This document shows positions 49,110 to 64,000 of a stretch of DNA of 64,000 nt, piece after piece. This DNA is from an uncultured delta proteobacterium. Its GTDB lineage: Bacteria; Desulfobacterota; Binatia; Binatales; Binataceae. The notes beneath the pieces are model-generated. The model worked only from the letters and a program-made list of their open reading frames with translations. It was not told the origin of the DNA and did no database searches. The first letter of the stretch is position 1. Each line of letters starts with the position of its first letter. Both the position numbers and the translations under genes were made by a program. The stretch lies in contig CAVQEQ010000003.1 in NCBI GenBank assembly GCA_963711565.1, positions 192,001-256,000 of the forward strand, given 5' to 3'.

Positions 49110-49757
49110 CTAAGGCGTCTGCTCGATGAAGGAAGACCTTATCGCATTAAGGCACCCGGCTGCCGGTAGGACCACCCCCCGGGGGAACCCGCCCTGATGC
49201 GGCGGGGTACCGGGAAGTGGCCCCACTCCTTCTGGCCCCGGACCGGGGGCCGCGAGAAGCCGGTTAGCAAGATTTTCGCGTTCATCTGCGGACATGGCGC
49301 TGATTCTCGTTGCCGCGCTGTCCTGCATTTTTTGTTTGAGATCACTCATAATCTTGTCGATGCTTCCGAAATGTGCGAGTACATCGGCCTTGGTCACGCT
49401 GCCCTGTTTCAGCTTTCCGGCAAATTCTTTGCGCAGATTGCCGATCCGGTCGAAGTTCTCCTGCAACGATGCAAGATTGTCTTTCATGTCTTGCGGGTGG
49501 AAAACGTCGTCCGGACCAAAGAATGGCGGCGGCGCACCCAGTTCGGGCCCACCCCCTAGCCTGCCGTCCGGCCGGACCCCCGCTAGAAAGGGAGCTGGTC
49601 CTATTCGTGGTCCATGGAACATCATCTCGCACGGCCCAAGGCTGCCATGATGACCGACTATAAGGCCGATCAGAAACACATTCAGAGCTGCGGATCCCAA
49701 CAAAAGTTTCGTGCTTCTCAGACCATTCACGTAAGCCCCCCTGTCATGGTTGTTCAC
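49110..49757 (-). CDS. Membrane-anchored periplasmic heavy-metal-sensor/Spy-like protein
   Basis: SAALNVFLIG anchor, helical bundle, MSADERENL. Confidence 0.65.
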   Translation of the reverse strand: MNNHDRGAYVNGLRSTKLLLGSAALNVFLIGLIVGHHGSLGPCEMMFHGPRIGPAPFLAGVRPDGRLGGGPELGAPPPFFGPDDVFHPQDMKDNLASLQENFDRIGNLRKEFAGKLKQGSVTKADVLAHFGSIDKIMSDLKQKMQDSAATRISAMSADERENLANRLLAAPGPGPEGVGPLPGTPPHQGGFPRGVVLPAAGCLNAIRSSFIEQTP

Positions 49758-50125
49758 AGCATAATTTCATAAGGCGAATCCGGACCCAGTATGATGAGGT
49801 CGGCATACCCTTTGCGATATTTCACCGCCTTGAAGTGTGCCGAACCCATGTCAGAATCCGTGAAGCTCGCCATTGCAGCATCGTGCCTGCTATCTCGTGT
49901 TTCTCCGATACCCAGCGTAAAACCAGATAGCCCGATCAAAAGATACAGCACCGCATACGCAAGCCGCGTCCAATATGGGTTTTGCTCCTGAATCTGATTG
50001 GCGGCAAGGTGGGTGGCCGGCAGGAACTCTGCAATTTCGATTGCCGCAAGCACCCGCTGAAATAGAGCTTCGTCCGCACCTGCGGCGGTATAGGTATCAA
50101 GCAGCCGATCTAGATCCTTATCCAT
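49754..50125 (-). CDS. Probable single-TM anti-sigma factor
   Basis: LDRLLD N-terminus, one TM, overlaps the sigma gene. Confidence 0.65.
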   Translation of the reverse strand: MDKDLDRLLDTYTAAGADEALFQRVLAAIEIAEFLPATHLAANQIQEQNPYWTRLAYAVLYLLIGLSGFTLGIGETRDSRHDAAMASFTDSDMGSAHFKAVKYRKGYADLIILGPDSPYEIML

Positions 50126-50675
50126 GCTTCTCCTCCTGTAAATTCTCTCTCAAATCCTGTTTCAGGTTCTGCCGAGCGCGATAGAGCAATTGTTCAAATG
50201 CGCCAAGCGGAAGCCCCATGACGTTTGCCGCCTCCTTGTTGCTGATCTGCTCGTAATAGCTGAGAATGATGGCTGCCCTCTGCCGTTCTCCTAAATCTCC
50301 TATCGCCCTGCGAACATGTGATCCGCGTTCGCGATCAATCAGAGTCTTTTCTGCGCCCGGTTTCTGGTCTTCGACCAAGTCCAGGTCGAGATTCGCGACA
50401 GGTACTTGACGGCGCTTGTGATCGATAGAGGCATTGAGCACCACTCGATAAAGCCAAGTCGAGAACTTCGCCTGCGGCTGCCAGCGCTCTGCTTCGTGCC
50501 AAATCTTGAAACATACGATCTGCGTTATATCTTCCGCATCCTGGCGATTTCCCACCATGCGCTCAGCAACGCGCACACACAAATCCATATATTTATGCAT
50601 CAACTCGCGATACGCGAGTTGATTCTTCTGCGCAATCTGCACGATCAAAAAGTGGTCGGCGTCAGAAAAGGGCAA
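50118..50675 (-). CDS. ECF RNA polymerase sigma factor
   Basis: DAEDITQ, FSTWLYRV, QRAAIILSYYE, LLYRAR. Confidence 0.9.
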   Translation of the reverse strand: MPFSDADHFLIVQIAQKNQLAYRELMHKYMDLCVRVAERMVGNRQDAEDITQIVCFKIWHEAERWQPQAKFSTWLYRVVLNASIDHKRRQVPVANLDLDLVEDQKPGAEKTLIDRERGSHVRRAIGDLGERQRAAIILSYYEQISNKEAANVMGLPLGAFEQLLYRARQNLKQDLRENLQEEKHG

Positions 50676-50719
50676 ACACCTGTCTCCTCAGCTCTCCTGC
50701 GCAGACTGCTGTTTCTTTT

Positions 50720-50744
50720 AACGAGTGCCGCGCGAAAACCTTAC
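50720..50744 (-). promoter_or_regulatory. Candidate autoregulatory ECF promoter
   Basis: GTAAG-N16-CGTT upstream of the sigma gene. Confidence 0.5.
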
Positions 50745-51020
50745 GCGACAATTTCTCTTTTGCGCACTAAAGGCACAAAATGAATTTAACGGTAAATGCC
50801 TTTTCGAAAGGACTACAGATTTTATTATCTTTTGAACTGACTACGACAGCTAGCCGACAAAAGAGAACCCAGCACGCCAAATAACGCACACCCGTTTCGG
50901 AAGAGCATCAATAAAGCACCCGGCGTATATCATGGAACGAAAGAAGAGACGAGGCGAGGTGGCCCCGTCTCTTCTCCGCAGTCCGGCACTTCCTTACATC
51001 AAAGCCACCTGGGGGGAGGA

Positions 51021-52013
51021 TCAGGCTGAGATGCCTCCTAGGCTGGAAGTGCTTTGTTGGCTAAATTGACTTAGCCAATTCTGAGCCGAACTGGATTGTG
51101 TCGCGGAGCCAGAAGATGTAAGCATACCAAATAGTTGTTGTAATTCCGCGATCAACTCAGTGTCTGTCGAAGGCGTAGAGTTTGTACTGGAGTCTGTAGA
51201 AGACGTAGAGTCTGTAGAAGACGTAGAACCTGTATTAGAGGATGTTGTATCAGTTGAAGCACTCGTGCTGGAAGTTGAGTTGCCTGATGTCGCGCTGTCA
51301 GTCGCATCCGCTCCGGAAGAAAGTGCATTAACCAACTGCTGTAACGCCGCGATCAGATTAGCATCGCTAGAAGAAGTAGTGTTTGCACCAGTTGAAGCAC
51401 CTGGGCTGGAAGCTGCTGCGGTTGATGTGGTGCTATCGGTATTGTTATCAGCCATCGTCGGCGGTGGCGGCATCATGCCGGGTGGCATTCCCTGCATCAT
51501 TGCGGAGGCCAGCTGACTTTCCGTTATCGAGTCAGAGTTACTGTTTCCGCTGATTGCGGAAAACATCGTGTCCGCTTCCGCCTGAGTGCCTCCGTTGTTC
51601 TCGATGAAGCTTTCAAACTCCGTTTTTGAAACGCTGCCATCGCCATTGGTATCCATCGCAGCGTACAGTTGCTGAGCAGGCGATTGCTGCGTGGATGTGC
51701 CGGAAGTGCTGCTGGTGGAATCACTATTACCGCTTGCGTTGGTGGTGCTGCTACTCGTAGCGGATGTACTGGAATCTTCCTCCTGCAATTGCAGAAGAAG
51801 ATCCATGATAGCGCCACTGATCTGTGTCGTGCCGCCAGTATAGCCCTGTGCCTGCGTTGTTGAGCTGTCACTGGCGCCGGCGGCACTACAGGTACTTGTA
51901 GACTCGGCGTCAGAATCGCTATCGGTTTCTGATGCTTGATCGAGTTGGCCGTAAAGCTGCGAGAGTACCTGACTAAGGTTGATTGAACCGGAAGTTATGG
52001 AATCGATGGACAT
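51021..52013 (-). CDS. Ser/Thr-rich EF-hand protein without a Sec signal peptide
   Basis: DTNGDGSVSKTEFE EF-hand, repeated LIAxLQQL helices, 18-bp tandem repeat at 51190-51225, GGAGG RBS. Confidence 0.8.
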   Translation of the reverse strand: MSIDSITSGSINLSQVLSQLYGQLDQASETDSDSDAESTSTCSAAGASDSSTTQAQGYTGGTTQISGAIMDLLLQLQEEDSSTSATSSSTTNASGNSDSTSSTSGTSTQQSPAQQLYAAMDTNGDGSVSKTEFESFIENNGGTQAEADTMFSAISGNSNSDSITESQLASAMMQGMPPGMMPPPPTMADNNTDSTTSTAAASSPGASTGANTTSSSDANLIAALQQLVNALSSGADATDSATSGNSTSSTSASTDTTSSNTGSTSSTDSTSSTDSSTNSTPSTDTELIAELQQLFGMLTSSGSATQSSSAQNWLSQFSQQSTSSLGGISA

Positions 52014-52798: not shown

Positions 52799-53605
52799 AT
52801 GACGATCAGCGAAATCTCCTACAGTACCGCTACTTCGGCGGGAACCTCTGCTAGCAGCGCCGCCAGCAGCGCCACGACCAGCGCCTCTGGCAGCGCGACA
52901 TCTAATCCTCTGGCGTCGCTGAGTGACGATTTCAACACATTTCTGCAATTGCTAACTACGCAGTTGCAGAACCAGGACCCGCTCTCGCCTGAAGATCCGG
53001 ATCAGTTCACCCAGGAACTCGTTGAAATGACGGGCGTCGAACAACAGATCACCGGCAATGGCGATCTCAGCCAACTCGTTACTCTTTCGCAAAGCAACGC
53101 CTCGGCAACCTATATGGGTTTTATTGGCCAGACGGTCACCACGCCCAGCAGTCAGATTGCGCTCGAAAATGGCTCCGCCCAGTTCTCCTATACCCTGCCA
53201 AGCGAAGCCTCCAACGTGACCATCTCGATAGAAGACAGCAACGGCAACACGGTCGCAACTCTAACGCCTGGCAGCGATGCCGCCGGCACGTATGACAAGA
53301 ATTGGGACGGCACCTCCGATAGTGGCACCACGGAATCGAGTGGCAGCTACACAGTCAGCGTCTCCGCCACGGACGCAAACGGTGACGCGATTAGCAGCAC
53401 TTCGACCCAAATCATCGGAACCGTCACCGGCGTACAAACCAGTTCGTCGGGCTCGGCCATACTCGATATCGGCCCGGTTTCGGTTGCAGCCAGCTCTGTG
53501 ACCGATGTCGGCAGCGACACCAGCACAACGAGCACCACCACTACGAGCAGCGCCGTCAGTACTCTGGCAAGCCAGCTTACCAGCGATCTTGAGAGCGATC
53601 TCTAG
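52799..53605 (+). CDS. flgD: Flagellar hook-capping protein FlgD (orphan copy)
   Basis: FLQLLTTQLQNQDPLSP, VEQQ, WDGT...G...SGSYT Ig domain. Confidence 0.88.
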   Translation: MTISEISYSTATSAGTSASSAASSATTSASGSATSNPLASLSDDFNTFLQLLTTQLQNQDPLSPEDPDQFTQELVEMTGVEQQITGNGDLSQLVTLSQSNASATYMGFIGQTVTTPSSQIALENGSAQFSYTLPSEASNVTISIEDSNGNTVATLTPGSDAAGTYDKNWDGTSDSGTTESSGSYTVSVSATDANGDAISSTSTQIIGTVTGVQTSSSGSAILDIGPVSVAASSVTDVGSDTSTTSTTTTSSAVSTLASQLTSDLESDL

Positions 53606-53660
53606 CAGTCTAGTTCAGCACTGTCCTCTCGGCCATCAACTTATACGATCAACAACATCG

Positions 53661-54140
53661 CTACTGCAGTTGGAGATCGAAAGTTCCTTTGCCATTGCAG
53701 TGCTTATGATTTCCCTTGACCAGAAACGTGCCCGACATCGTGTCACCGTCAACCGTCGCCATGACGGCAGCGGTGCATTTGTGCTCGGTTCCACCGGTAG
53801 TATGAAACGTAAGCGTAAGGTCGTTTCCAGAGATTTTGCCTGCGAGTTTTCCGACAGGCGTCTCGTCGCCGGCCGTTATGCTGAACGTACCGTCGATCGT
53901 TTTTTTATGCTGAGTAAGATCCAGGGTCATAGGACCTGAGCCGCTTCCTTGGTCACCTTCGTCCAGAGTGTCAGTGCCACTCCAAGTACCCGCGACTTGT
54001 GTGATCGGCCCCGTCTCCCTCGCCTCGTACGTGCTTGATTCGTCAGCGTCCTGAGCACGGCCTGCGGTCTGGCAAAGCACCGCCAACAGCATCGACGCGG
54101 CGGCGAGGGTGGCTGGAACAAGTGTGATGGGGAACTTCAT
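53661..54140 (-). CDS. Secreted beta-barrel-like hypothetical protein
   Basis: Signal peptide, VAGTWSGT, two Cys. Confidence 0.7.
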   Translation of the reverse strand: MKFPITLVPATLAAASMLLAVLCQTAGRAQDADESSTYEARETGPITQVAGTWSGTDTLDEGDQGSGSGPMTLDLTQHKKTIDGTFSITAGDETPVGKLAGKISGNDLTLTFHTTGGTEHKCTAAVMATVDGDTMSGTFLVKGNHKHCNGKGTFDLQLQ

Positions 54141-54200
54141 CTAATTCTTACCGAGTTTAACCTGCTCAAAGGCAGAGACATGCAACCGTTGAGAATCGCG

Positions 54201-54404
54201 CTACTTCTCAGCGCTGAAACAAGGCGTTACAACGCTACCGGATGTGTTGGCATCACTGCTTATCTGCGTCCTATAAGCCTTACAATCGGATTCAGCCTTA
54301 AAAGGTCCGACCTGAGTGAACGGAGCATAGCCGGTGTTCCAGCTAATCAGAAAGTACCAAACAAACACGAGCGCTGTGGCATTGCGTAGGAGTTTCGTCT
54401 TCAT
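54201..54404 (-). CDS. Small secreted/membrane protein with two Cys
   Basis: Hydrophobic N-terminus, GPFKAESDC...TPC, GAGG RBS. Confidence 0.55.
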   Translation of the reverse strand: MKTKLLRNATALVFVWYFLISWNTGYAPFTQVGPFKAESDCKAYRTQISSDANTSGSVVTPCFSAEK

Positions 54405-54510
54405 TCTTCCTCTTGTTGCTGCGTTGCAATTTTAAGACTGGTAGAAGAGGTCCTTCGGCCGATTTGGGAGAATTTTAGATTTTGCCTCCAGGGGATACTT
54501 ACCACCAACA

Positions 54511-56908
54511 TCAATGCAGGGGGGGAACCTCGGTCGTGTTGAACGGCGTATCGCCGCTGTTAGAAGTGCCCGGTTCCGCGGCTCCACTGTCTGGCTCCGT
54601 GCTTGGAGGAGCATCGTACGGAGCATTCAAGTCGGCCGCAGGCGGAACAGGAATAGAAAAGCTCGGCTTGTAGAGCTCGCGGATCTGCGAAGCAGGCATA
54701 TCGTGAATCTCTTTGCGGCCTAGCGAGCTGACCAACTTCTGGCGTTCGTCCAGAGCTAGTGAGCGGAGATCCGATTTGGTGCGAATGATGTGTGGAGTAA
54801 CGAATACGATGAGATTCGTCTTATCCTTTTCTTTGGACTTGTCCGAGAACAGATTCCCGATGACCGGTACTTCGGAAAGAAACGGAATGCCTTGGTTGGT
54901 ATTCTCGTCGTCGCTCAAGAGTAGGCCGCCAATCACGGCAGTCCGATGATCCTGTACGTAGATGGTCGTCGACGCGGACCGCAGAGTCGTGGTTGGGCCG
55001 TTGGTATTGTTCGCCGTTCCGCTCACAACATTTGACACTTCCTCGTACATATCAATCTTCACGTAGTCGCCGGATGTGACTTGAGGAACCACGTCGAGTG
55101 TGATGCCCACGTTCTGCCTCTGCACGGAGTTGAATATTTCCCCCGAAACCGCTGAATTGGCCGATGACGATGAAACAAAAGGCAGGTTCTCGCCGACCAC
55201 GATCATTGCCTCTTCGTTGTCTGCCGTAAGCAGGGTCGGGGCAGAAAGCACATTCGAATGTGTATCTGCCTGGAGAGCATTAATTAACGCCACGTCACAT
55301 GGAACGGTGACGTAGTCCGAACTACTCGACGAAGTGCTACTCGAACTTGAGGAGGTTGACACTTTGCATTTGCTTCCCGATGCGATTCCGAAACTCAGGC
55401 CAGTTAGCGACAGGGGATCGGTAAGTGCGCTCGACAGGGTGCCGAAGTTCAGCGATCCGACTCCGATCGCACTTCCGCCACCAGCGGCAGCGTTATATTG
55501 AACGCCAAGTTCTCGCTGATGCTGCTGGGAAATCTCGACAATGATGGCCTGTATGAACACCTGCACGCGGGGAACGTCGAGCTCATCTATGACTTGTCGC
55601 AGCGTCTGCCAATCCTGTGGCGCGGCGGTTACCACCAACGCATTGGTCGCGGGATCTGCCGCGATGTTAACCGGATAGCTGAAGTCCATGCTCTTCCCGC
55701 TACTGCTGGCCGTTGCAGACCCGCTGCTGGCGTTCGACGAACCGCCCCCGCGCATCCCACCGAAACCACCGCTCCCGCCGGTTCCGCCCAAGCTGCCGCC
55801 ACCGCTTGTGCTGCCGAAGCTGGAGCTGCCGGACGTGCTGCTGCCACCGAGTCCACTCATCCCGCCGAATCCGGAGTTACCGTTGGAAGCGTCGTTGAAG
55901 CTGGAGCGGCCAAGGGATCCCTTGCCGGTGGTGGGCGAGAGCGTAGTTGGACCGCTACCGCCGTTGAGAAGGTTGTTGAGCACCTGGACCATCTCGAGCG
56001 CTTGCGCGTTCTTGAGTCGATAGACGTGGATACGCGAGGTGGCCAAGGGAGGATTGACGTTCGAGCTTCTGCACGATTTCCTGGATCTCGCGCATCTGCA
56101 CCGGCGGCGCGGCCACGATGAGGCAATTGGTGCGCTCGTCAGGAATCACTTTGTAACCCATGGCTGTACCGGTGCTCGAGGGCGCTACGCCCATTTGGGG
56201 CCGTATCCCTGTCTGCGAGGCGCCGGAGGTGCCGCCCATCTTGGCGGTCATAAGCGCGTCGATCTCGGGCGCGAGCTCGGTGGCAAATGCGAGCTTGAGC
56301 GGAATAACGACAATGGACTGCTGCTCGCCGCGCACGTCGAGGCTGCCGATGATGTCGAGCAGGCGCTCAACGTTATAGGCGTCGTCGGTGACGATAATCG
56401 TGTTGTCTTGCGGAAATGCGGCAATCAGGCCGTCGTGCGAGACCATCGGCTGTATCGCGCTGATGACGGAAGCGGCGTCGATATTCTTAAGCCGCACCAT
56501 CCGCGTGACGTACTCGTCGCCAGTACCTTGGGAGGGAGTTTGCGACTCGGTAAGCTCGGCTGACGAGCGGACATTGCGGGCGGGAACGATTTTGATGATT
56601 TTGCCAGCTTGTACGGTCGTGAAACCCTTCACCTGCAGGACCGACTGAAAGATTGAATAAGCTTGCTCGGGCGTGACCTTGCTCGGCGAGATGATGGTGA
56701 CTTTGCCGCGCACGGATTCATCGATGATGAAATTGCGGCCGGTGATCTCACTGATGAATTTGGCCAACACGGGAATATCCACGTTTTGGAAGTTCATCGT
56801 AATTGTGTTGTTGGGCGAGAGCGGTTGAGTATCGGCAGCTTCGGACCCAAGCGCTATCAAACCAAGTAATACAGTCGCGACTGTAGCCCGGAAAAAAAGG
56901 CTCGTCAT
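54511..56908 (-). pseudogene. gspD: Type II secretion secretin GspD, split by a +1 frameshift at about 56060
   Basis: MNFQNVDI (N0), RIHVYRLKNA, QVFIQAIIVE, VLSAPTLLTADNEEA, GIPFLSEVPVIGNLF. Removing one A restores KLDVNPPLATSRIH. Confidence 0.85.
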
Positions 56909-57000
56909 AAAAACATCTCCACCTTGCTGAGAAGCGCTTCGGTGCTTTTGGTTGACGCCTGCTCGAAGGCGCACCTTCACTTCACCGCTTCGAGTTGGGA

Positions 57001-57027
57001 GACGCGCGCGATCGCAGAAAGTTGCGC
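57001..57027 (-). promoter_or_regulatory. ECF-type promoter of gspD
   Basis: GCGCAAC-N16-CGTC. Confidence 0.7.
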
Positions 57028-57174
57028 AGCAAAATTCTGAAAGGGCCGAGCGAGACAATTTTGGGGAAAATGGTGCGATTGAGCCTCGGTGGCCGTGACA
57101 GGACTTAATCAACGCCGCGGGGATTCGAGTCCACCGACCAGTTTTTGGTCACGGGCGGTCGCGCACGCGCAGCA

Positions 57175-57201
57175 GCGCAACTAAATCATCTTTGGAGCGT
57201 C
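57175..57201 (+). promoter_or_regulatory. ECF-type promoter of the HTH-tolC-macAB operon
   Basis: GCGCAAC-N16-CGTC. Confidence 0.7.
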
Positions 57202-57264
57202 ATGCATTCTGATCGTGGAGCGGCGACAAATGAGATTCCGCGGCAACTACCAGGACAACGAAAC

Positions 57265-57528
57265 GTGACCAATCCCGGTTTACGACAATCACATTCGATC
57301 TGGACGGTGCGCGATGTCGTAACATATTTGCGAATCAGTAAGAGCGAGATTTATCGGATGGCGAAACGGGGGGCATTGCCTTGCTTTCGCATCGGCGGAC
57401 AACTGCGGTTCCCAGCCAGCGAAATAGTGAAGTGGTCGAGCGAGTCGAGCGAAGAAAAGAAATCTACAAAGACGGCAGAAATTAAATCGGCCGAGTTCCT
57501 GAGCGGAATCGTGGCAAAGTACCTTTGA
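57265..57528 (+). CDS. Excisionase-family HTH_17 DNA-binding protein
   Basis: WTVRDVVTYLRISKSEIYRMA...LPCFRIGGQLRF. Confidence 0.8.
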   Translation: MTNPGLRQSHSIWTVRDVVTYLRISKSEIYRMAKRGALPCFRIGGQLRFPASEIVKWSSESSEEKKSTKTAEIKSAEFLSGIVAKYL

Positions 57529-59084
57529 ACAACGGTCGCTTAAACAGAGACTGCAGTTTCTCGCACCGCCGCACAACGCGAGTGCCTGATCGGTTCCAGG
57601 CGCCAGCCGTTGCACGGGCTCTGTTGGCCGTATTTGGCGTGTTCTGGGGCTGCGCGGTTGGTCCAAACTACCGGCAGCCAAAGGTTCCGGTGGAGTCCGG
57701 ATGGAGCGAAGCGGCCTCGAACAAGAATGCCGCCCCCAGCCAAACCGGTCCCGATCAATGGTGGCTGGTATTCAAAGACCCAAAGCTTAATTCGTTGGTA
57801 GAGCGCGCAATCAAAGCCAATCTAGATCTTCAGTTAGCGGAAGCGCGGATTCATGAAGCACGCGCGACCCGGCAGATCGAGGCCGCACCTTTGTGGCCTG
57901 AGTTGGATGCGACCAGCTCTTTCTCGCGAACTTTACAGAGTCAGAATCAGACTCAGAACGCGGGCGTCTCGCTTTCAACAGGCTTCGCCATTTCAAATCA
58001 ACCCATGAATCTTTACGAGTCAGGCTTCGATGCAAGCTGGGAGATTGACGTCTTCGGTGGAACGCGGCGCTCGGTTGAATCCGCCCAGGACAGCCTCGAG
58101 GCCTCAATTTACGACCGCAATGATGTGCTCCTGACGCTGCTCGGCGAAGTGGCGAGCGGCTACATCGATTTACGCTCCTATCAAACGCAACTGGAGGTCA
58201 CCCGGAACAATCTTGCTGCGCAAACCGGCACGCTCAAGCTGACACGTGCCCGTTATGAAGGCGGCCTCGCCAGCGACCTCGACGTCGCGCAGCAGGAAGC
58301 ACAGGTCGCGGCAACCGCGTCGGAGATTCCGACCCTGGAAACCTCATGCCGTCAATCGATTCACTCGCTTGGTACTTTGCTTGGCGAGCAACCAGACGCT
58401 CTGTCGGAGGAATTGAGTTCGCCCGCGGCAATTCCGATTGCTCCATCGAAATTGCCGATCGGGCTGCCGTCGGAACTGTTGCGCCGGCGCCCCGATATAC
58501 GCCGCGACGAAAGAAAGCTGGCGGCCACGGTCGCCAATATTGGCGTGGCCACGGCAGACCTCTTTCCCAAGTTTTCTCTGACCGGCGCCACGCAGTTGCA
58601 AAGTATTAGCGTAAACACTCTGCTCTCCGAAGGAAGCATCTACTGGACTTTCGGACCAACCGTCACATGGCCGATCTTTGAGGGTGGTGAGATACTCGGC
58701 AACATCGACAAGGCCGATGCGCAGAGAGACGAAGCTCTCATCACCTACCAGCAGACGATCCTCAATGCGCTCGAAGAGGTGGAAAACGAAATCGTCGCAT
58801 TCAGTCACGAGCGCGAGCGCTACCAGTATCTGTTTACAGAGGTCAGCGCGAGCCAGCGAGCGCTCGATCTTTCGACCGAGCTTTATCTCGGTGGTCTGAA
58901 GAACTTCCTTGATGTTCTCGATGCACAACGCACCTTGCTCACGTCTGAGAACGACCTGGCCACCAGCCAGGCGGCGGTGTCGAAAGATCTGGTAGCGCTG
59001 GACAAAGCTTTAGGTGGCGGATGGCAGGGTTCCCAGTACGACGCGAGCCAACCGCTGCCCGCAGTCAAAGTGATGGATGATTAG
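57525..59084 (+). CDS. Outer-membrane efflux lipoprotein (NodT/OprM/TolC family)
   Basis: GCAVGPNY, SWEIDVFG, PSELLRRRPDI, KALGGGW. Confidence 0.92.
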   Translation: MNNGRLNRDCSFSHRRTTRVPDRFQAPAVARALLAVFGVFWGCAVGPNYRQPKVPVESGWSEAASNKNAAPSQTGPDQWWLVFKDPKLNSLVERAIKANLDLQLAEARIHEARATRQIEAAPLWPELDATSSFSRTLQSQNQTQNAGVSLSTGFAISNQPMNLYESGFDASWEIDVFGGTRRSVESAQDSLEASIYDRNDVLLTLLGEVASGYIDLRSYQTQLEVTRNNLAAQTGTLKLTRARYEGGLASDLDVAQQEAQVAATASEIPTLETSCRQSIHSLGTLLGEQPDALSEELSSPAAIPIAPSKLPIGLPSELLRRRPDIRRDERKLAATVANIGVATADLFPKFSLTGATQLQSISVNTLLSEGSIYWTFGPTVTWPIFEGGEILGNIDKADAQRDEALITYQQTILNALEEVENEIVAFSHERERYQYLFTEVSASQRALDLSTELYLGGLKNFLDVLDAQRTLLTSENDLATSQAAVSKDLVALDKALGGGWQGSQYDASQPLPAVKVMDD

Positions 59085-59111
59085 CGCGTCACGCCCGGAG
59101 GCAGTGAGAAA

Positions 59112-60416
59112 ATGGACCAGGTCGATACAACTCACAACGGCGGAGGCAGCCCGTCGCAAAGGAGTACTAGCGCGCCGGGCGAAAGCAACTCGCATCGCGG
59201 CGTGATCATCAATTCCAAGAGATCGCGCTCCCGCCGCAAACTTACATTTCTGGCCCTCGGCATCGGAGTGATGGCGATCGCTTCGACCTTGATGATTCAG
59301 CGGCACAATCAGAACACCGACGCTCAGGGCTGGACGACCGCCAAAATCTCAACCGGTTCGATCGTTCGTGTCGTCACGGCGACGGGAACCGTCGATCCCG
59401 TAATTACGGTCGAGGTCGGCACATACGTGTCCGGTCCGATAACCGCGATTTATGCCGACTACAACGCCTCAGTTAAGGCGGGGCAGCTCATCGCCAAGAT
59501 CGATCCGCGGCCGTTTCAAGTGAAAGTTGATGAGGCTGCGGCATCGCTGGCCAATGCGACCGCACAACTCCACAAGGACATCGCCGACGAGAAGTACAAA
59601 AGTGTCGCGTACCGGCGAGATGCCAAGCTCCTCAAACAGAAGGCTGTGTCTCAGGACGCACTCGACAGCGCCCAAAGCGCATCTGAGCAGGCGACCGCTC
59701 AAATCGAGCTCGACCGCGCGACGATTCAGCAGCAGCAGGCAAATTTGAGAGATGCGGAACTGAATCTCAAATACACCGACATTGTTTCTCCGGTCAGCGG
59801 CACGGTCATCGCGCGCGAGGTGGACGTCGGCCAGACAGTCGCGGCAAGTCTTCAGACGCCCACGCTTTTTCTAATTGCCAAGGATTTGACCAAGATGCAG
59901 GTCGATTCGAACGTAAGCGAAGCCGACATCGGAGAGGTGCGTGCCGGACAGAAGGCGAAATTCACGGTAGATGCCTATGACCGCAGCTTCGAAGGAGTGG
60001 TCAGGCAAGTCCGCCAAAACCCAAGCACGACTCAAAACGTCGTCACGTATGACGTGGTCGTCTCTGCTGACAATCCGCAAATGCTGCTGGCGCCAGGCAT
60101 GACCGCGAATGTCAAAATCATCACGCAGGAGCGCACCAATGTACTGCGTGTGCCGCTGCAGGCGATCAAGTATGAGTCCGTCGGCACATCTCTGGACCGC
60201 GACGAATCGGCGCCGGAAAACCTCCAGGCTTTTCTGTGGATCCCGGACGGTGCGGAGCGAAAACGCTTGCCGGTGCAGACTGGGGTTCGCGACGCGAAAT
60301 TCGCAGAGATAATCAGCGACCGCATTCACCCTGGCGCCACCATCCTGATCGAACCGGCGGCGCAGTCCGAAACGAATTCCGCCAACCAGCCGCCTGGGCC
60401 TCCGGGAATGATGTGA
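59112..60416 (+). CDS. macA: MacA-like periplasmic adaptor
   Basis: ATGTVDPV, VGQTVAASLQTPTLF, NVVTY. Confidence 0.85.
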   Translation: MDQVDTTHNGGGSPSQRSTSAPGESNSHRGVIINSKRSRSRRKLTFLALGIGVMAIASTLMIQRHNQNTDAQGWTTAKISTGSIVRVVTATGTVDPVITVEVGTYVSGPITAIYADYNASVKAGQLIAKIDPRPFQVKVDEAAASLANATAQLHKDIADEKYKSVAYRRDAKLLKQKAVSQDALDSAQSASEQATAQIELDRATIQQQQANLRDAELNLKYTDIVSPVSGTVIAREVDVGQTVAASLQTPTLFLIAKDLTKMQVDSNVSEADIGEVRAGQKAKFTVDAYDRSFEGVVRQVRQNPSTTQNVVTYDVVVSADNPQMLLAPGMTANVKIITQERTNVLRVPLQAIKYESVGTSLDRDESAPENLQAFLWIPDGAERKRLPVQTGVRDAKFAEIISDRIHPGATILIEPAAQSETNSANQPPGPPGMM

Positions 60417-62500
60417 GCAAAATCGCCGACAGCGTTATCGAACTCTCTGGTCTCTCACGGTGTTACGACTTGGGAGAGATCTCGGTCATCGCGCTCAACG
60501 GTGTCTCATTGTCGATTGCGCGTGGCGAGTTCGTCGCGATTATGGGAGCTTCGGGCTCCGGAAAATCCACCCTGCTGAATCTCTTGGGATGCCTGGATCA
60601 AGCCACCTCCGGTTACTATCGACTCGAGGGCACCGATGTCGGAGGACTCGACGAGCCTTCACTTGCGCATGTGCGAAGTCTCAAGGTGGGCTTCGTGTTT
60701 CAGAGTTACAACCTGCTTTCCAGGACGACCGCGCTGGAAAATGTCGAGTTGCCGTTGGTCTATTCGGGCCGGCCATCCGACGGCCACGAGAGAGCCTCAA
60801 ACATGCTTCGCCTCATCGGACTCGGCGACCGCGCGCAACACTATCCGAACCAGCTATCCGGCGGCCAGCAACAGCGGGTGGCGATCGCGCGCGCCCTCGT
60901 CAACGATCCGGCCATCCTGCTCGCCGACGAGCCAACCGGAAACCTCGACTCGAAAAGCTCACTTGAGATCATTGCGATTATCCGCCGACTCAACCAGGAA
61001 CAGGGGCTTACGGTCGTTCTCGTAACGCATGAACCAGACATAGCATCCTTCGCGGATAGGATTATCACGCTGCGAGACGGCGTTATCCTCTCAGACGTTG
61101 ACAACCAACAGACCCGGCTCGCCGACTCCCATAGCCAACGCGTTCGCCCGGTATCCGATCGAAACTCGCGCCCGGAAATCGAGGCGATACGCGGCGGCGC
61201 CTTCGCGATGATGATGTTGCGGACCGCATGGATTGCGATCAATCGCAACCGGCTTCGATCGGCTCTTACCGTGCTCGGCATCCTGATCGGGGTGGCGGCG
61301 TTGATCGCGACGGTTACCGTCAGCCGCGAGGCGGGCCAGCATGTCCGCCAACAAATCGAGGGCTTGGGCACCAACCTTCTGATCGTCCTCCCGGGAGCCA
61401 CCACCTCGTCCGGCGCCAGCGGAGGATTCGGCAGCCGTTCGACATTAACGGTTGACGATGCCGACGCCGTAAGTGAGAACGCTCCGTCAGTTGAGTTCGT
61501 CACCTACAGCAATCGACAATCAGCGCAGGTCGTTTATCGAGACCGCAACTGGAACACTACGGTTGAAGGCGTAAGCGCAAGCTATTTGGCGGTGCGCGAT
61601 TGGTCGGTCGCTATCGGACGAAGTTTTCTAGCGCAGGAAGATTCGGCGGGAGCGCGTGTCGGCATTCTCGGCCAGACGGTGGCAAAGACGCTGTTCGACG
61701 ATGCCGATCCGATTGGCTCGACCGTCCGGATCGGCGGGATACCGATCGAAGTGGTCGGCGTACTCACGCCCAAAGGACGTACCGGATTCGGCCAGGATCA
61801 GGATGACATCGTCCTTGTGCCCTTCAACACCGCGCAAGACCGAATTACCGGTGTGACCGCGCCGACCTCGACGGTGTCAAACAGCAATCCGATCTTTAAT
61901 GCGTCCTCGAATCCTCTCGGCGTCGGGCGAAAAATTGCGGGAATTGTCGGAACCATCTTTGTCAAGAGCCGCAGCCCCGAACTAAGCGGTCAGGCGATGT
62001 CGGAGGTAGAGCAGATTCTTCGCCGTCGTCATCGCCGGCCGCAAGATCAGGCCGACGACTTTACCGTAAGGAACATCAACGACCTGCTCAATGTCGCTCA
62101 AAGCACGACGCGCTCGTTATCTTTGCTGCTCGCTTCGGTTGCCGCCATTTCGCTCGCGGTCGGAGGCATCGGCATCATGAATATATTGCTGGTATCGATC
62201 AGCGAACGAACGCGCGAGATCGGCATTCGGATGGCGATCGGGGCCACTCGAATTCATATACTTTCGCAATTTTTGCTCGAAGCCGTTGCGCTCAGCGCTG
62301 TCGGAGGCAGCGCCGGGATCGTCGTGGGCCTGGGCATTTCTCTGGTTGCGTCCGCTATCGCAGGTTGGTCGATCTCGATTTCATTCACCGCGATCATGGT
62401 CGGGTTTCTTTTTTCCGTGATCATCGGGATTTTCTTCGGCTACTACCCCGCGCTGAAGGCTTCGAGACTTAACGTCATCGATGCTCTCCGCTTCGAGTAG
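60413..62500 (+). CDS. macB: MacB-like ABC transporter (ATPase-permease fusion)
   Basis: GASGSGKST, LSGGQQQRV, GGIGIMNILLVSISERTREIGIR. Confidence 0.92.
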   Translation: MSKIADSVIELSGLSRCYDLGEISVIALNGVSLSIARGEFVAIMGASGSGKSTLLNLLGCLDQATSGYYRLEGTDVGGLDEPSLAHVRSLKVGFVFQSYNLLSRTTALENVELPLVYSGRPSDGHERASNMLRLIGLGDRAQHYPNQLSGGQQQRVAIARALVNDPAILLADEPTGNLDSKSSLEIIAIIRRLNQEQGLTVVLVTHEPDIASFADRIITLRDGVILSDVDNQQTRLADSHSQRVRPVSDRNSRPEIEAIRGGAFAMMMLRTAWIAINRNRLRSALTVLGILIGVAALIATVTVSREAGQHVRQQIEGLGTNLLIVLPGATTSSGASGGFGSRSTLTVDDADAVSENAPSVEFVTYSNRQSAQVVYRDRNWNTTVEGVSASYLAVRDWSVAIGRSFLAQEDSAGARVGILGQTVAKTLFDDADPIGSTVRIGGIPIEVVGVLTPKGRTGFGQDQDDIVLVPFNTAQDRITGVTAPTSTVSNSNPIFNASSNPLGVGRKIAGIVGTIFVKSRSPELSGQAMSEVEQILRRRHRRPQDQADDFTVRNINDLLNVAQSTTRSLSLLLASVAAISLAVGGIGIMNILLVSISERTREIGIRMAIGATRIHILSQFLLEAVALSAVGGSAGIVVGLGISLVASAIAGWSISISFTAIMVGFLFSVIIGIFFGYYPALKASRLNVIDALRFE

Positions 62501-62507
62501 CGGAAAC

Positions 62508-63119
62508 TCAGGGAGCGGCGGGCGGGGGCAGTACTTTTTCGAGTTTAAAACTGGGTGGCGGCGTTTCGTCAACCAGAGTGATTAACTTGTTCCGCCGATC
62601 GATCAATAAGTCCTTGAGTTGCTTCTGCTGGTTGTCATCGAGACTGAGATCCTCGGTGAAATGTTCCAGCAACGGCCGGTAGATCACCATCGAGACGAAG
62701 ACAGGACCCATTATCGGACCACAGCCGGGCAGTGGATCGGGAAGGTTCGCGATGCGAGCCTTGATGACATCGAATTTACGTTTCTGCTCAGAATTTAGTA
62801 TCGTTTCGAAGGAACTCCTGAATTGCTGCTCGATCGCATCGACGCTCTTTCGAAAAGCCTCGACTTGGGGTTCGAGCATCGCGATCCTTTTGCGAATCTC
62901 CTCCGCACCTGGAGGCGGCTCATTATGTGAATTCTGTATCCAGGGTGGAAGCGCCGGAGGAGGGCCTGGGAACCCGGGAAGCGATTGCCCGCCGAATTCG
63001 CTCATCGGCCCAAACGGCGGCGGCGGCATTGGCCGCACCTTCTGTGTCCAGATTCCGACGAGAAGTCCCGACAGAAACAGGGCAACCGTTATCAGGATGA
63101 CCCGAAGGTTGTCCCTCAT
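62508..63119 (-). CDS. Membrane-anchored periplasmic Spy/CpxP-like protein
   Basis: N-terminal TM, Pro-rich linker, ILNSEQKRKF and LSLDDNQQKQL (LTxxQ-like) motifs. Confidence 0.65.
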   Translation of the reverse strand: MRDNLRVILITVALFLSGLLVGIWTQKVRPMPPPPFGPMSEFGGQSLPGFPGPPPALPPWIQNSHNEPPPGAEEIRKRIAMLEPQVEAFRKSVDAIEQQFRSSFETILNSEQKRKFDVIKARIANLPDPLPGCGPIMGPVFVSMVIYRPLLEHFTEDLSLDDNQQKQLKDLLIDRRNKLITLVDETPPPSFKLEKVLPPPAAP

Positions 63120-63382
63120 ATTGCCTCCTCGAGCGCCTGGATCTGGGCAGTCACCTGCGTCCACGCTGCGAGACTCTGTTTCTCAGCCGATTGGGTCTTT
63201 AGCCAATGGAACGATACCGTTGTGACTACACATAGCGTCCCGGTTATCACCATCAATCTGAGTTGTCCTAATACGTAGCGCCGCTTCTTGGCGTCTTCTA
63301 CGACCCGCCTCGCAAAATCCGGCGGCAGACGAAGCCCAGCCTGACGTTGAAGATGCTGCATGTAGCGTGAGCTAATCTTCAT
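63116..63382 (-). CDS. Probable single-TM anti-sigma factor
   Basis: LPPDFARRV followed by one TM; overlaps the sigma gene. Confidence 0.7.
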   Translation of the reverse strand: MKISSRYMQHLQRQAGLRLPPDFARRVVEDAKKRRYVLGQLRLMVITGTLCVVTTVSFHWLKTQSAEKQSLAAWTQVTAQIQALEEAI

Positions 63383-63920
63383 CGGTCTCCCTCCCTCGAA
63401 GAAATTCTCTCGCTCTGAACAGCCGTGACTTTACTGAACTTACGGTGCTGTTTGTGATTTCTGCCAGCTGCTCGTAAGACCAATCGTTTTCGGCGAGCAG
63501 CAGGATCAGCTCCTTCTGCGCGCGTGGCAGACCCTCGACCGCAACTCGAAAGGCGTCCAAACGACTGTCCAGATGGTGTCCCGGCGTCGTTACTGGTTCG
63601 TGCTTGAGCTCAAAGGGCACAAACAGCCGGCGCACCCGTTCTTTCCGAAAGTGATCGTTGCAGACGTTCCGCGCGATTTGGAACAGCCACGGTTCGAAAC
63701 TGTTGGCATCTCGGAGTCTGGGTAAACCTGAAATCATTTTGAGAAAGGCGTTGTGACAGACATCCTCAATTGCGTCACTCTTGCCGATCAGAGAGTAGAC
63801 GAGCCCGGCGATCCTATCCTGGAACCGGCGGACGAGCGCCTCCATAGCCGCTTCAGACCCATCCTGAGCTCGGCGTACCAAGGCGGCCAAGTTTTCCTGG
63901 TCAGGATTGGTCTTCGTCAC
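63372..63920 (-). CDS. ECF RNA polymerase sigma factor
   Basis: FEPWLFQIARN, SYEQLAEI, VKSRLFRAR. Confidence 0.9.
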   Translation of the reverse strand: MTKTNPDQENLAALVRRAQDGSEAAMEALVRRFQDRIAGLVYSLIGKSDAIEDVCHNAFLKMISGLPRLRDANSFEPWLFQIARNVCNDHFRKERVRRLFVPFELKHEPVTTPGHHLDSRLDAFRVAVEGLPRAQKELILLLAENDWSYEQLAEITNSTVSSVKSRLFRAREFLRGRETDED

Positions 63921-63939
63921 CCATCTCTCTGTTTCTTAA

Positions 63940-63966
63940 GACGGAATTACGAGGCAAAAGTTGCGC
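63940..63966 (-). promoter_or_regulatory. Autoregulatory ECF-type promoter
   Basis: GCGCAAC-N16-CGTC. Confidence 0.7.
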
Positions 63967-64000
63967 TAGATTTCCCAATCATTGCGAAGCCAATCGGGAC

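Follow-up and report, generated by a model that had tools for sequence, protein, structure and literature searches.

In Pseudomonas aeruginosa, XqhA and XphA form a second GspD/GspC pair, encoded outside the xcp locus, that makes a hybrid with the resident type II secretion system (T2SS) (PMC6567927). Type II secretion has also been placed under extracytoplasmic function (ECF) sigma factors: sigma-VreI turns on Hxc in the same species (PMC2729926), and RpoE turns on the eps T2SS in Vibrio cholerae (PMC6598108). Among ECF groups, ECF111, ECF03s10, ECF281 and ECF290 have a one-helix anti-sigma factor at position +1 and an LTXXQ or heavy-metal-resistance protein at +2, and ECF249 has a predicted -35 of CGCAACTTT and a -10 of GTT, the accessible text of the survey giving it no LTXXQ neighbour (PMC7826278). 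The periplasmic substrates exported by MacAB-TolC are small molecules and Sec-dependent, disulfide-bonded peptides (PMC8277102). Here we describe a ten-kilobase cassette in which an ECF sigma operon, a MacAB-TolC-like pump operon and a separately encoded gspD lie side by side, near the end of a 64,000-nucleotide stretch of contig CAVQEQ010000003.1 (C3) from an uncultured member of the Binataceae (GCA_963711565.1); this whole stretch is referred to as the window, and positions are the window's unless a contig is named. We judge it reasonably probable that the cassette carries a spare T2SS secretin switched by its ECF sigma factor, which would transcribe its own operon and gspD, the resulting pore docking on the T2SS of the host.

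A preliminary description of this DNA had placed one motif, GCGCAACT-N15-CGTC, upstream of the sigma operon, the pump operon and the divergent gspD. Exact copies are found at all three places and on the strands given for them (Table 1), three in the window against 0.04 expected; none of 100 shuffles gives three copies, a figure that is flattered by the derivation of the pattern from the tested sites themselves. A fourth exact copy lies 149-175 bases past the window end (C3:256149-256175, minus strand), so the sigma operon has tandem sites, and genome-wide the pattern has 12 matches, four of them within the cassette. The independent test is a promoter matrix, with the reversed genome as control. 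Its 19 training sites all lie upstream of sigma genes, in 12 loci outside the cassette, two of them in Rhizomicrobium; no gspD or tolC site was used. When the 4.8-Mb genome is scored on the core positions of this matrix, the first three ranks go to the two sigma sites, at 27.5 bits, and the gspD site, at 26.6 bits; no control site reaches these scores. The CGTC -10 is present in 19/19 training sites, which were selected on CGTC. In a spacing control over three genomes the right spacing gave 37 matches against 6 in controls, and a spacer one base longer gave 15 against 9. No sigma-70-like site was found in 53400-64000. The motif is likely to be the autoregulatory promoter of the cassette sigma factor, which has the features of an autoregulated ECF: sigma2 and sigma4 domains only, and an upstream AAC-N16-CGT site conserved in homologues.

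Relatives of the sigma factor occur at 27 genome loci, 11 of which have the full triad of sigma factor, 88-aa protein and Spy-like protein: the cassette of a congener (G032) and ten loci with neither gspD nor a pump nearby. In related genomes the triad carries this candidate promoter upstream, the motif preceding the sigma gene at 10/10 of the non-cassette triad loci, which are of Binataceae type, and being present twice at seven of them. The scan of the genome and its relatives that the preliminary description had called for finds the motif conserved both upstream of related sigma genes and in cassette copies. The triad is found in 4/4 genomes of genus g32, 10/10 of g50, 3/7 of g42 and 1/6 of g38, and in 0/42 other host-genus genomes of at least 80% completeness, a distribution that fits its import into the host genus. 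Loci of g32-like genomes (L044:9740-9830 and six others like it) also have a conserved hairpin, about 80 nt long and with C-rich loops, between their tandem ECF promoters; it has 27 predicted pairs with no two-sided changes and a weak match to Rfam ar14 (E=0.24), and is a candidate for a small RNA under ECF control whose loops would be anti-Shine-Dalgarno.

The link between this sigma clade and type II secretion recurs outside the cassette. Five genomes reached via the sigma loci hold 16 exact matches to the motif against 1 control match, and in four of these five, which are without the cassette, the motif precedes gspE (4/4). The g32 sigma factor is the closest relative of the cassette's, at 67% identity. 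When 80 upstream regions were scored with the matrix, values of 21.9-27.5 were obtained in g32 upstream of 6/8 gspD copies (4/4 long-tailed and 2/4 short-tailed) and 3/3 gspE, the g32 genomes overlapping those of the five-genome count and all being kin. Outside that genus, 0/32 gspD and 0/37 gspE regions score above 10.3, those of the triad-bearing g50, g42 and g38 included. With 30 of 37 g32 matches read, an Hsp70-like gene (3/3) and, by translation reading, a PlsX-like gene have the motif upstream as well.

Cassette copies permit a comparison of the two divergent sites, made on six aligned intergenic regions, three of which are near-identical to one another. The gspD site is retained in 6/6 cassettes covering it, its -35 and -10 elements being invariant at 12/12 positions and its spacer at 10/15. 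On the tolC side 25/27 positions are invariant against 195/297 other intergenic bases, with 11/12 in the elements and 14/15 in the spacer. The T-tract probably matters for the reading of an ECF -35; it is present in 19/19 training sites and missing from the tolC-side site, which for this reason scores only 11.5 bits and ranks 249th, a level that 234 control sites equal or exceed. The shared promoter proposed for all three units hence stands for the sigma operon and gspD (26.6-27.5 bits), with the third site at background. It may be that the sigma factor controls only itself and gspD, and that tolC-macAB answers to another ECF sigma factor or to the helix-turn-helix (HTH) protein encoded at the head of its operon, pump and pore being unrelated cargo on one island. 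Besides the missing T-tract and low score, this alternative draws on a tolC-side spacer as invariant as the elements, unlike a typical promoter, on the 30 motif loci read in g32, none of which includes macA or tolC, on the many ECF sigma factors encoded in the genome, and on a related but distinct ECF-type site, read by eye, upstream of core macA in about 22/28 congener loci (matrix score 21.1 in the host). Against it, the -35 core, the 16-nt spacing and the -10 of the tolC-side site are kept in 6/6 cassettes, and gene order is identical in every contig spanning the cassette; we regard it as unlikely. Co-control of the pump by the cassette sigma factor, as the preliminary description had it, is weakly plausible from this geometry and conservation, less so than control of gspD: the site is conserved, but a poor match. 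The core macAB of the genus has no tolC of its own (C3:1555.6 kb in this genome; L169-L196).

The same description called gspD an orphan, which is true of the window but not of the genome. Of four secretins encoded by the host, two are of GspD type. Pfam matches to gspE, F, G, J, K and L lie at C4:899-907 kb, without gspD; the sole gspC-like match in the genome, found by tblastn only, lies apart from the other gsp genes at C4:1139 kb; and C3:767-770 kb holds the core gspD, a second and intact copy, the host T2SS being split over three loci. Core gspD likewise stands alone, divergent from lolC-lolD-bamA-skp-fabZ, and does so in the congener loci read. An inverted-repeat-like element, GCAAC ... 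GTTGC, lies between lolC and core gspD and is conserved across the host genus (L003-L029). As a carrier of the motif the core gspD promoter was rejected, 0/27 non-cassette congener gspD loci scoring above 8.5 (L030 having no anchor).

Comparison of the two GspD proteins points to a mosaic. Cassette and host core GspD are identical at 69/70 positions of N0 and 54/62 of N1, and at 124/166 of the secretin domain. Across 19 core genes, cassette-core identity is 89% in N0-N1 (core-core 92%) and 74% in the secretin core, where core-core identity is 90% and cassette-cassette identity 96%; at four-fold sites the cassette-core and core-core values are 61% and 65% for the N-terminal half, against 40% and 67% for the barrel. 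GC content at third codon positions is 0.73 in the N-terminal half and 0.62 in the barrel, compared with 0.56-0.70 in other cassette genes and about 0.8 in core genes. In the phylogeny against core GspD that the preliminary description had suggested (21 rows), the N-terminal half nests inside the host-genus core genes, with an approximately unbiased (AU) test p=0.008 against its lying outside them; the barrel has a branch length of 0.55, compared with 0.073 for the N-terminal half, and its nesting in the host genus is not rejected (AU p=0.243). The nearest database proteins are the GspD proteins of Ca. Binatus (63-71%). The cassette gspD is likely to be an old duplicate whose N-terminal half was later overwritten from a core gene. 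Two other histories were set aside: a foreign donor for the barrel is not borne out, nesting in the host genus being compatible with the AU result just given, and repeated conversion of the N-terminal half in each host, to which a protein tree had pointed, did not hold up in DNA trees, which put the cassette N-terminal halves in one clade.

Second gspD copies recur in the family, in 4/4 g32 and 7/7 g42 genomes and in G026 and G028 (L197-L212, L034), and those read in g32, g42 and G026 are without the Ala/Pro/Ser-rich C-terminal tail of 60-120 aa found in the core protein. In G088 two gspD copies have identical N-domains, pointing to gene conversion, and in G026 extra copies of gspD, of an mreB-like gene and of a gspC-like gene lie near one another (C11:861-873 kb; L034-L035).

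GspC contacts GspD via N0 (PMC3169554), and a host-matched N0 therefore fits docking on the host machine. The preliminary description had offered two options for the cassette secretin, a stand-alone pore or an alternative secretin for the host T2SS. The second agrees with the host gsp genes and the host-matched N0; the first was dropped as the leading explanation because host T2SS genes are present and a separate gspD is normal in the genus. A secretin acting without a T2SS, as an inducible large pore for uptake or leak paired with the pump, is in our view very unlikely. It would account for the absence of the motif at host gspE, gspC and core gspD, for a cassette that brings no gspC, and for the long branch of the barrel. 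It sits poorly with an N-terminal half in which N0-N3 are all present, under purifying selection (ratio of nonsynonymous to synonymous substitution rates, dN/dS, 0.22) and nested among host-genus core genes, with a pump that has its own TolC, and with a g32 motif that covers gspE as well as gspD.

In this assembly an extra base near 56060 breaks the gspD reading frame in two. The base is missing from G032 and from one contig of run X1 (depth 3.1); X1 pieces are mostly at least 99% identical to the window, and X1 may be the window's own sample. We consider the frameshift a likely assembly error. The gene is intact in G032, L071 and P0001, and the 798-aa G032 orthologue passes TIGR02517 with 561.5 bits (cut-off 351.35). 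Against the cassette copy L071, dN/dS is 0.07 for the sigma gene, 0.10 for the gspD barrel and 0.11-0.15 for macA, macB, tolC and the Spy-like gene, rising to 0.24 for the anti-sigma gene, 0.33 for the 67-aa gene and 0.45 for the HTH gene; synonymous divergence (dS) is 0.43-0.57 for the sigma, anti-sigma and Spy-like genes, tolC, macA, macB and both halves of gspD, the group with dN/dS of 0.07-0.24. The cassette genes are under purifying selection. An inactivated and unconserved gspD, the outcome on which the preliminary description said its proposal would fail, does not look likely from these data. That gspD is a captured, decaying passenger and its motif a leftover is an improbable alternative: the frameshift here, breaks in L072 and the presence of the cassette in only 1/46 other congeners speak for it, and the near-identical X1 contig (a single contig of low depth), the intact orthologues, the low dN/dS of the barrel and the invariant promoter elements speak against it.

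The congener that has the cassette, G032, carries it whole at 90% DNA identity. A set of 404 TolC relatives was reduced to 80 metagenome loci; seven of these have a TolC at 82-92% identity, and all seven show the cassette to the contig end. The conserved neighbourhood of gspD, macAB-tolC and ECF genes that was to be looked for is thus found in G032 and in seven metagenome contigs. The claim that it is mobile also held up, since insertion neighbourhoods differ: in the present genome (G000) the cassette is in an ssb/IS110/relaxase region, in G032 it sits behind a tRNA, in L071 and L072 next to terminase genes, and in L075 it is flanked by other mobile-type genes. In the present genome the region has a GC content of 0.52-0.59 against 0.61 for the genome and is flanked by a pair of 113-bp repeats, 88% identical (C3:239124-239236 and C3:256228-256336); IS110 lies between the repeats, and genes for a ParA-like protein, a resolvase and MobA lie outside them. 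The conserved core of the cassette includes no integrase gene. The ten-kilobase cassette is likely to be mobile. Carriage by viruses was considered and rejected, no relative of the sigma factor or the barrel being found in viral contigs.

Taken together, these observations lead us to propose that the sigma factor would be held by the putative anti-sigma factor and a Spy/CpxP-like partner and released by periplasmic stress, envelope stress being suggested as the trigger by the Spy/CpxP-like neighbour. Once released it would read GCAACTTT-N13-CGTC, amplify itself and the Spy-like protein, and, via the top-ranked gspD site, induce the spare secretin; cassette GspD would then bind host GspC, giving the host T2SS a second pore. 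The divergent imperfect site might drive HTH-tolC-macAB as a parallel route from periplasm to outside, the 67-aa protein being, by inference only, a candidate cargo. Several points, besides the poor score of the tolC-side site, weigh against this proposal. A host sigma factor 45% identical to the cassette's (C4:873 kb), whose own operon has the motif upstream (C4:872.8 kb, matrix score 24.7), could be the actual reader. Host gspE, gspC and core gspD being without the motif, the sigma factor would induce the pore but not the other parts of the machine. The triad-bearing g50 and g42 have no motif at gsp genes, and the g32 signal comes from one genus, in four or five related genomes that are the source of most training sites (14/19 from g32-like loci). 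All cassette copies are close kin (82-94% protein identity) of single origin, so that pump and pore could have stayed linked by descent and not by selection; some copies are, moreover, frameshifted (sigma and macA in G032, gspD in L072, tolC and sigma in L074).

A more ambitious version, which we put forward as doubtful speculation, is that the cassette is a secretin-swap module, in which a host-derived docking half keeps the pore plug-compatible and the barrel is distinct; stress would refit the outer face of the T2SS and open MacAB-TolC for the cassette's own disulfide peptide. If true, a different outer face could mean another cargo range or another phage-receptor surface.

The gene calls of the preliminary description, from the ECF sigma factor to the two small open reading frames beside gspD, all hold and are listed with the promoters in Table 1.

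Table 1. Features of the cassette, in window positions.
Feature	Position	Strand	Evidence
Proximal ECF-type promoter of sigma operon	63940..63966	-	27.5 bits, joint top genome score; distal twin past window end
ECF sigma factor, 182 aa	63372..63920	-	Pfam Sigma70_r2 and r4_2; TIGR02937 above cut-off; dN/dS 0.07 against L071
Putative anti-sigma factor, 88 aa, one hydrophobic helix (43-61)	63116..63382	-	+1 in all triad loci; hydropathy; predicted function
Spy/CpxP (LTXXQ)-like protein, 203 aa	62508..63119	-	N-terminal hydrophobic helix; two invariant-region Cys/Pro motifs
MacB-type ATP-binding cassette (ABC) transporter	60413..62500	+	ATPase, MacB periplasmic core and FtsX; 4 transmembrane helices
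MacA-type periplasmic adaptor	59112..60416	+	Family profile matches
NodT/TolC-family outer membrane factor	57525..59084	+	Pfam OEP; TIGR01845 above cut-off
HTH_17 (excisionase-like) DNA-binding protein, first gene of pump operon	57265..57528	+	Domain match; dN/dS 0.45
Imperfect ECF-type site upstream of HTH-tolC-macAB	57175..57201	+	11.5 bits; conserved in 6 cassettes
ECF-type promoter of gspD	57001..57027	-	26.6 bits, genome rank 3, 0 control sites
Full-length T2SS secretin GspD (N0-N1-N2-N3-secretin)	54511..56908	-	Pfam; short-tailed paralogue of host gspD
67-aa protein, two invariant cysteines, candidate exported peptide	54201..54404	-	In 3/4 cassette loci reaching here
159-aa protein, N-terminal hydrophobic helix	53661..54140	-	In 2/4 cassette loci reaching here (G000, G032)

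The 88-aa protein has no match in Pfam or NCBIfam. LTXXQ (Pfam) matches 13/13 homologues of the Spy-like protein at E<=1, with 1.1e-6 as the best value; for the window protein the match, at E=0.0027, is under the cut-off. A single-sequence model of this protein is helical and of low confidence (predicted local distance difference test, pLDDT, 55.6), and a fold search with this model gave no match at E<=0.001. The 67-aa gene is found in G000, G032 and L071, not in L072, and the two cysteines of its product are invariant in 8/8 aligned sequences. The 159-aa protein belongs to no known family and matches only unnamed Atlas clusters; a 61% paralogue is encoded elsewhere in the genome. Next to it lies a lone flgD (hook-capping) gene (52799-53605), with no flagellar basal-body rod match in the genome. 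The same island holds a second triad of ECF sigma factor, small protein and helical protein (50118-50675, 49754-50125 and 49110-49757), without the motif, and a Ser/Thr-rich EF-hand protein (51021-52013); this region (49110-52013) is not in the other cassette loci. Just beyond the window (L043:7222-12747), a gene for an 1841-aa metallophosphoesterase-NACHT protein adjoins an AbiEii pair, a resolvase gene and MobA, possibly an anti-phage system on an adjoining element.

These results define an ECF promoter and predict its regulon in Ca. Binataceae, an abundant uncultured lineage of soil and peat, and the sigma-promoter pair is amenable to testing in a laboratory host. The site of this sigma clade is tied to T2SS genes twice: one genus has it at gsp genes of the chromosome, another on a mobile cassette. 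If the mosaic works, a mobile gene alters a multi-protein secretion machine by swapping its outer-membrane part alone.

A literature search found no description of this cassette, and its likeness to known systems is partial. The layout of the triad matches ECF111, ECF03s10, ECF281 and ECF290, although the predicted promoter of ECF111 differs. With ECF249 it shares the -35 and a one-helix +1 anti-sigma factor, but its -10 is CGTC and not GTT, and we liken it to that group by description without filing it as a member; for none of these five groups does the accessible text of PMC7826278 give a secretin target. The cassette pump resembles MacAB-TolC in its fused ATPase-permease MacB, MacA adaptor and outer membrane factor, and differs in scoring below the macrolide-pump equivalog cut-offs (PRK10535, 526 of 966 bits; PRK11578, 195.5 of 342 bits), which makes it MacAB-like, in its own NodT-type channel and in the HTH gene of its operon. 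As with sigma-VreI and Hxc (PMC2729926) and RpoE and eps (PMC6598108), an ECF sigma factor is predicted to act over type II secretion genes. Those factors are described as covering a whole T2SS cluster, whereas in the host genus the secretin alone has a site and in g32 gspD and gspE do; the cassette regulator is, moreover, a triad of sigma factor, small anti-sigma factor and LTXXQ protein, not VreA/VreR signalling or RseA/RseB. Like XqhA (PMC6567927), cassette GspD is a secretin paralogue encoded separately from the main locus and predicted to be regulated separately. Unlike the XqhA/XphA pair it comes without a GspC partner, its N0 matching the host's instead, and it is a mosaic that travels on a mobile cassette together with a dedicated sigma triad and a MacAB-TolC pump.

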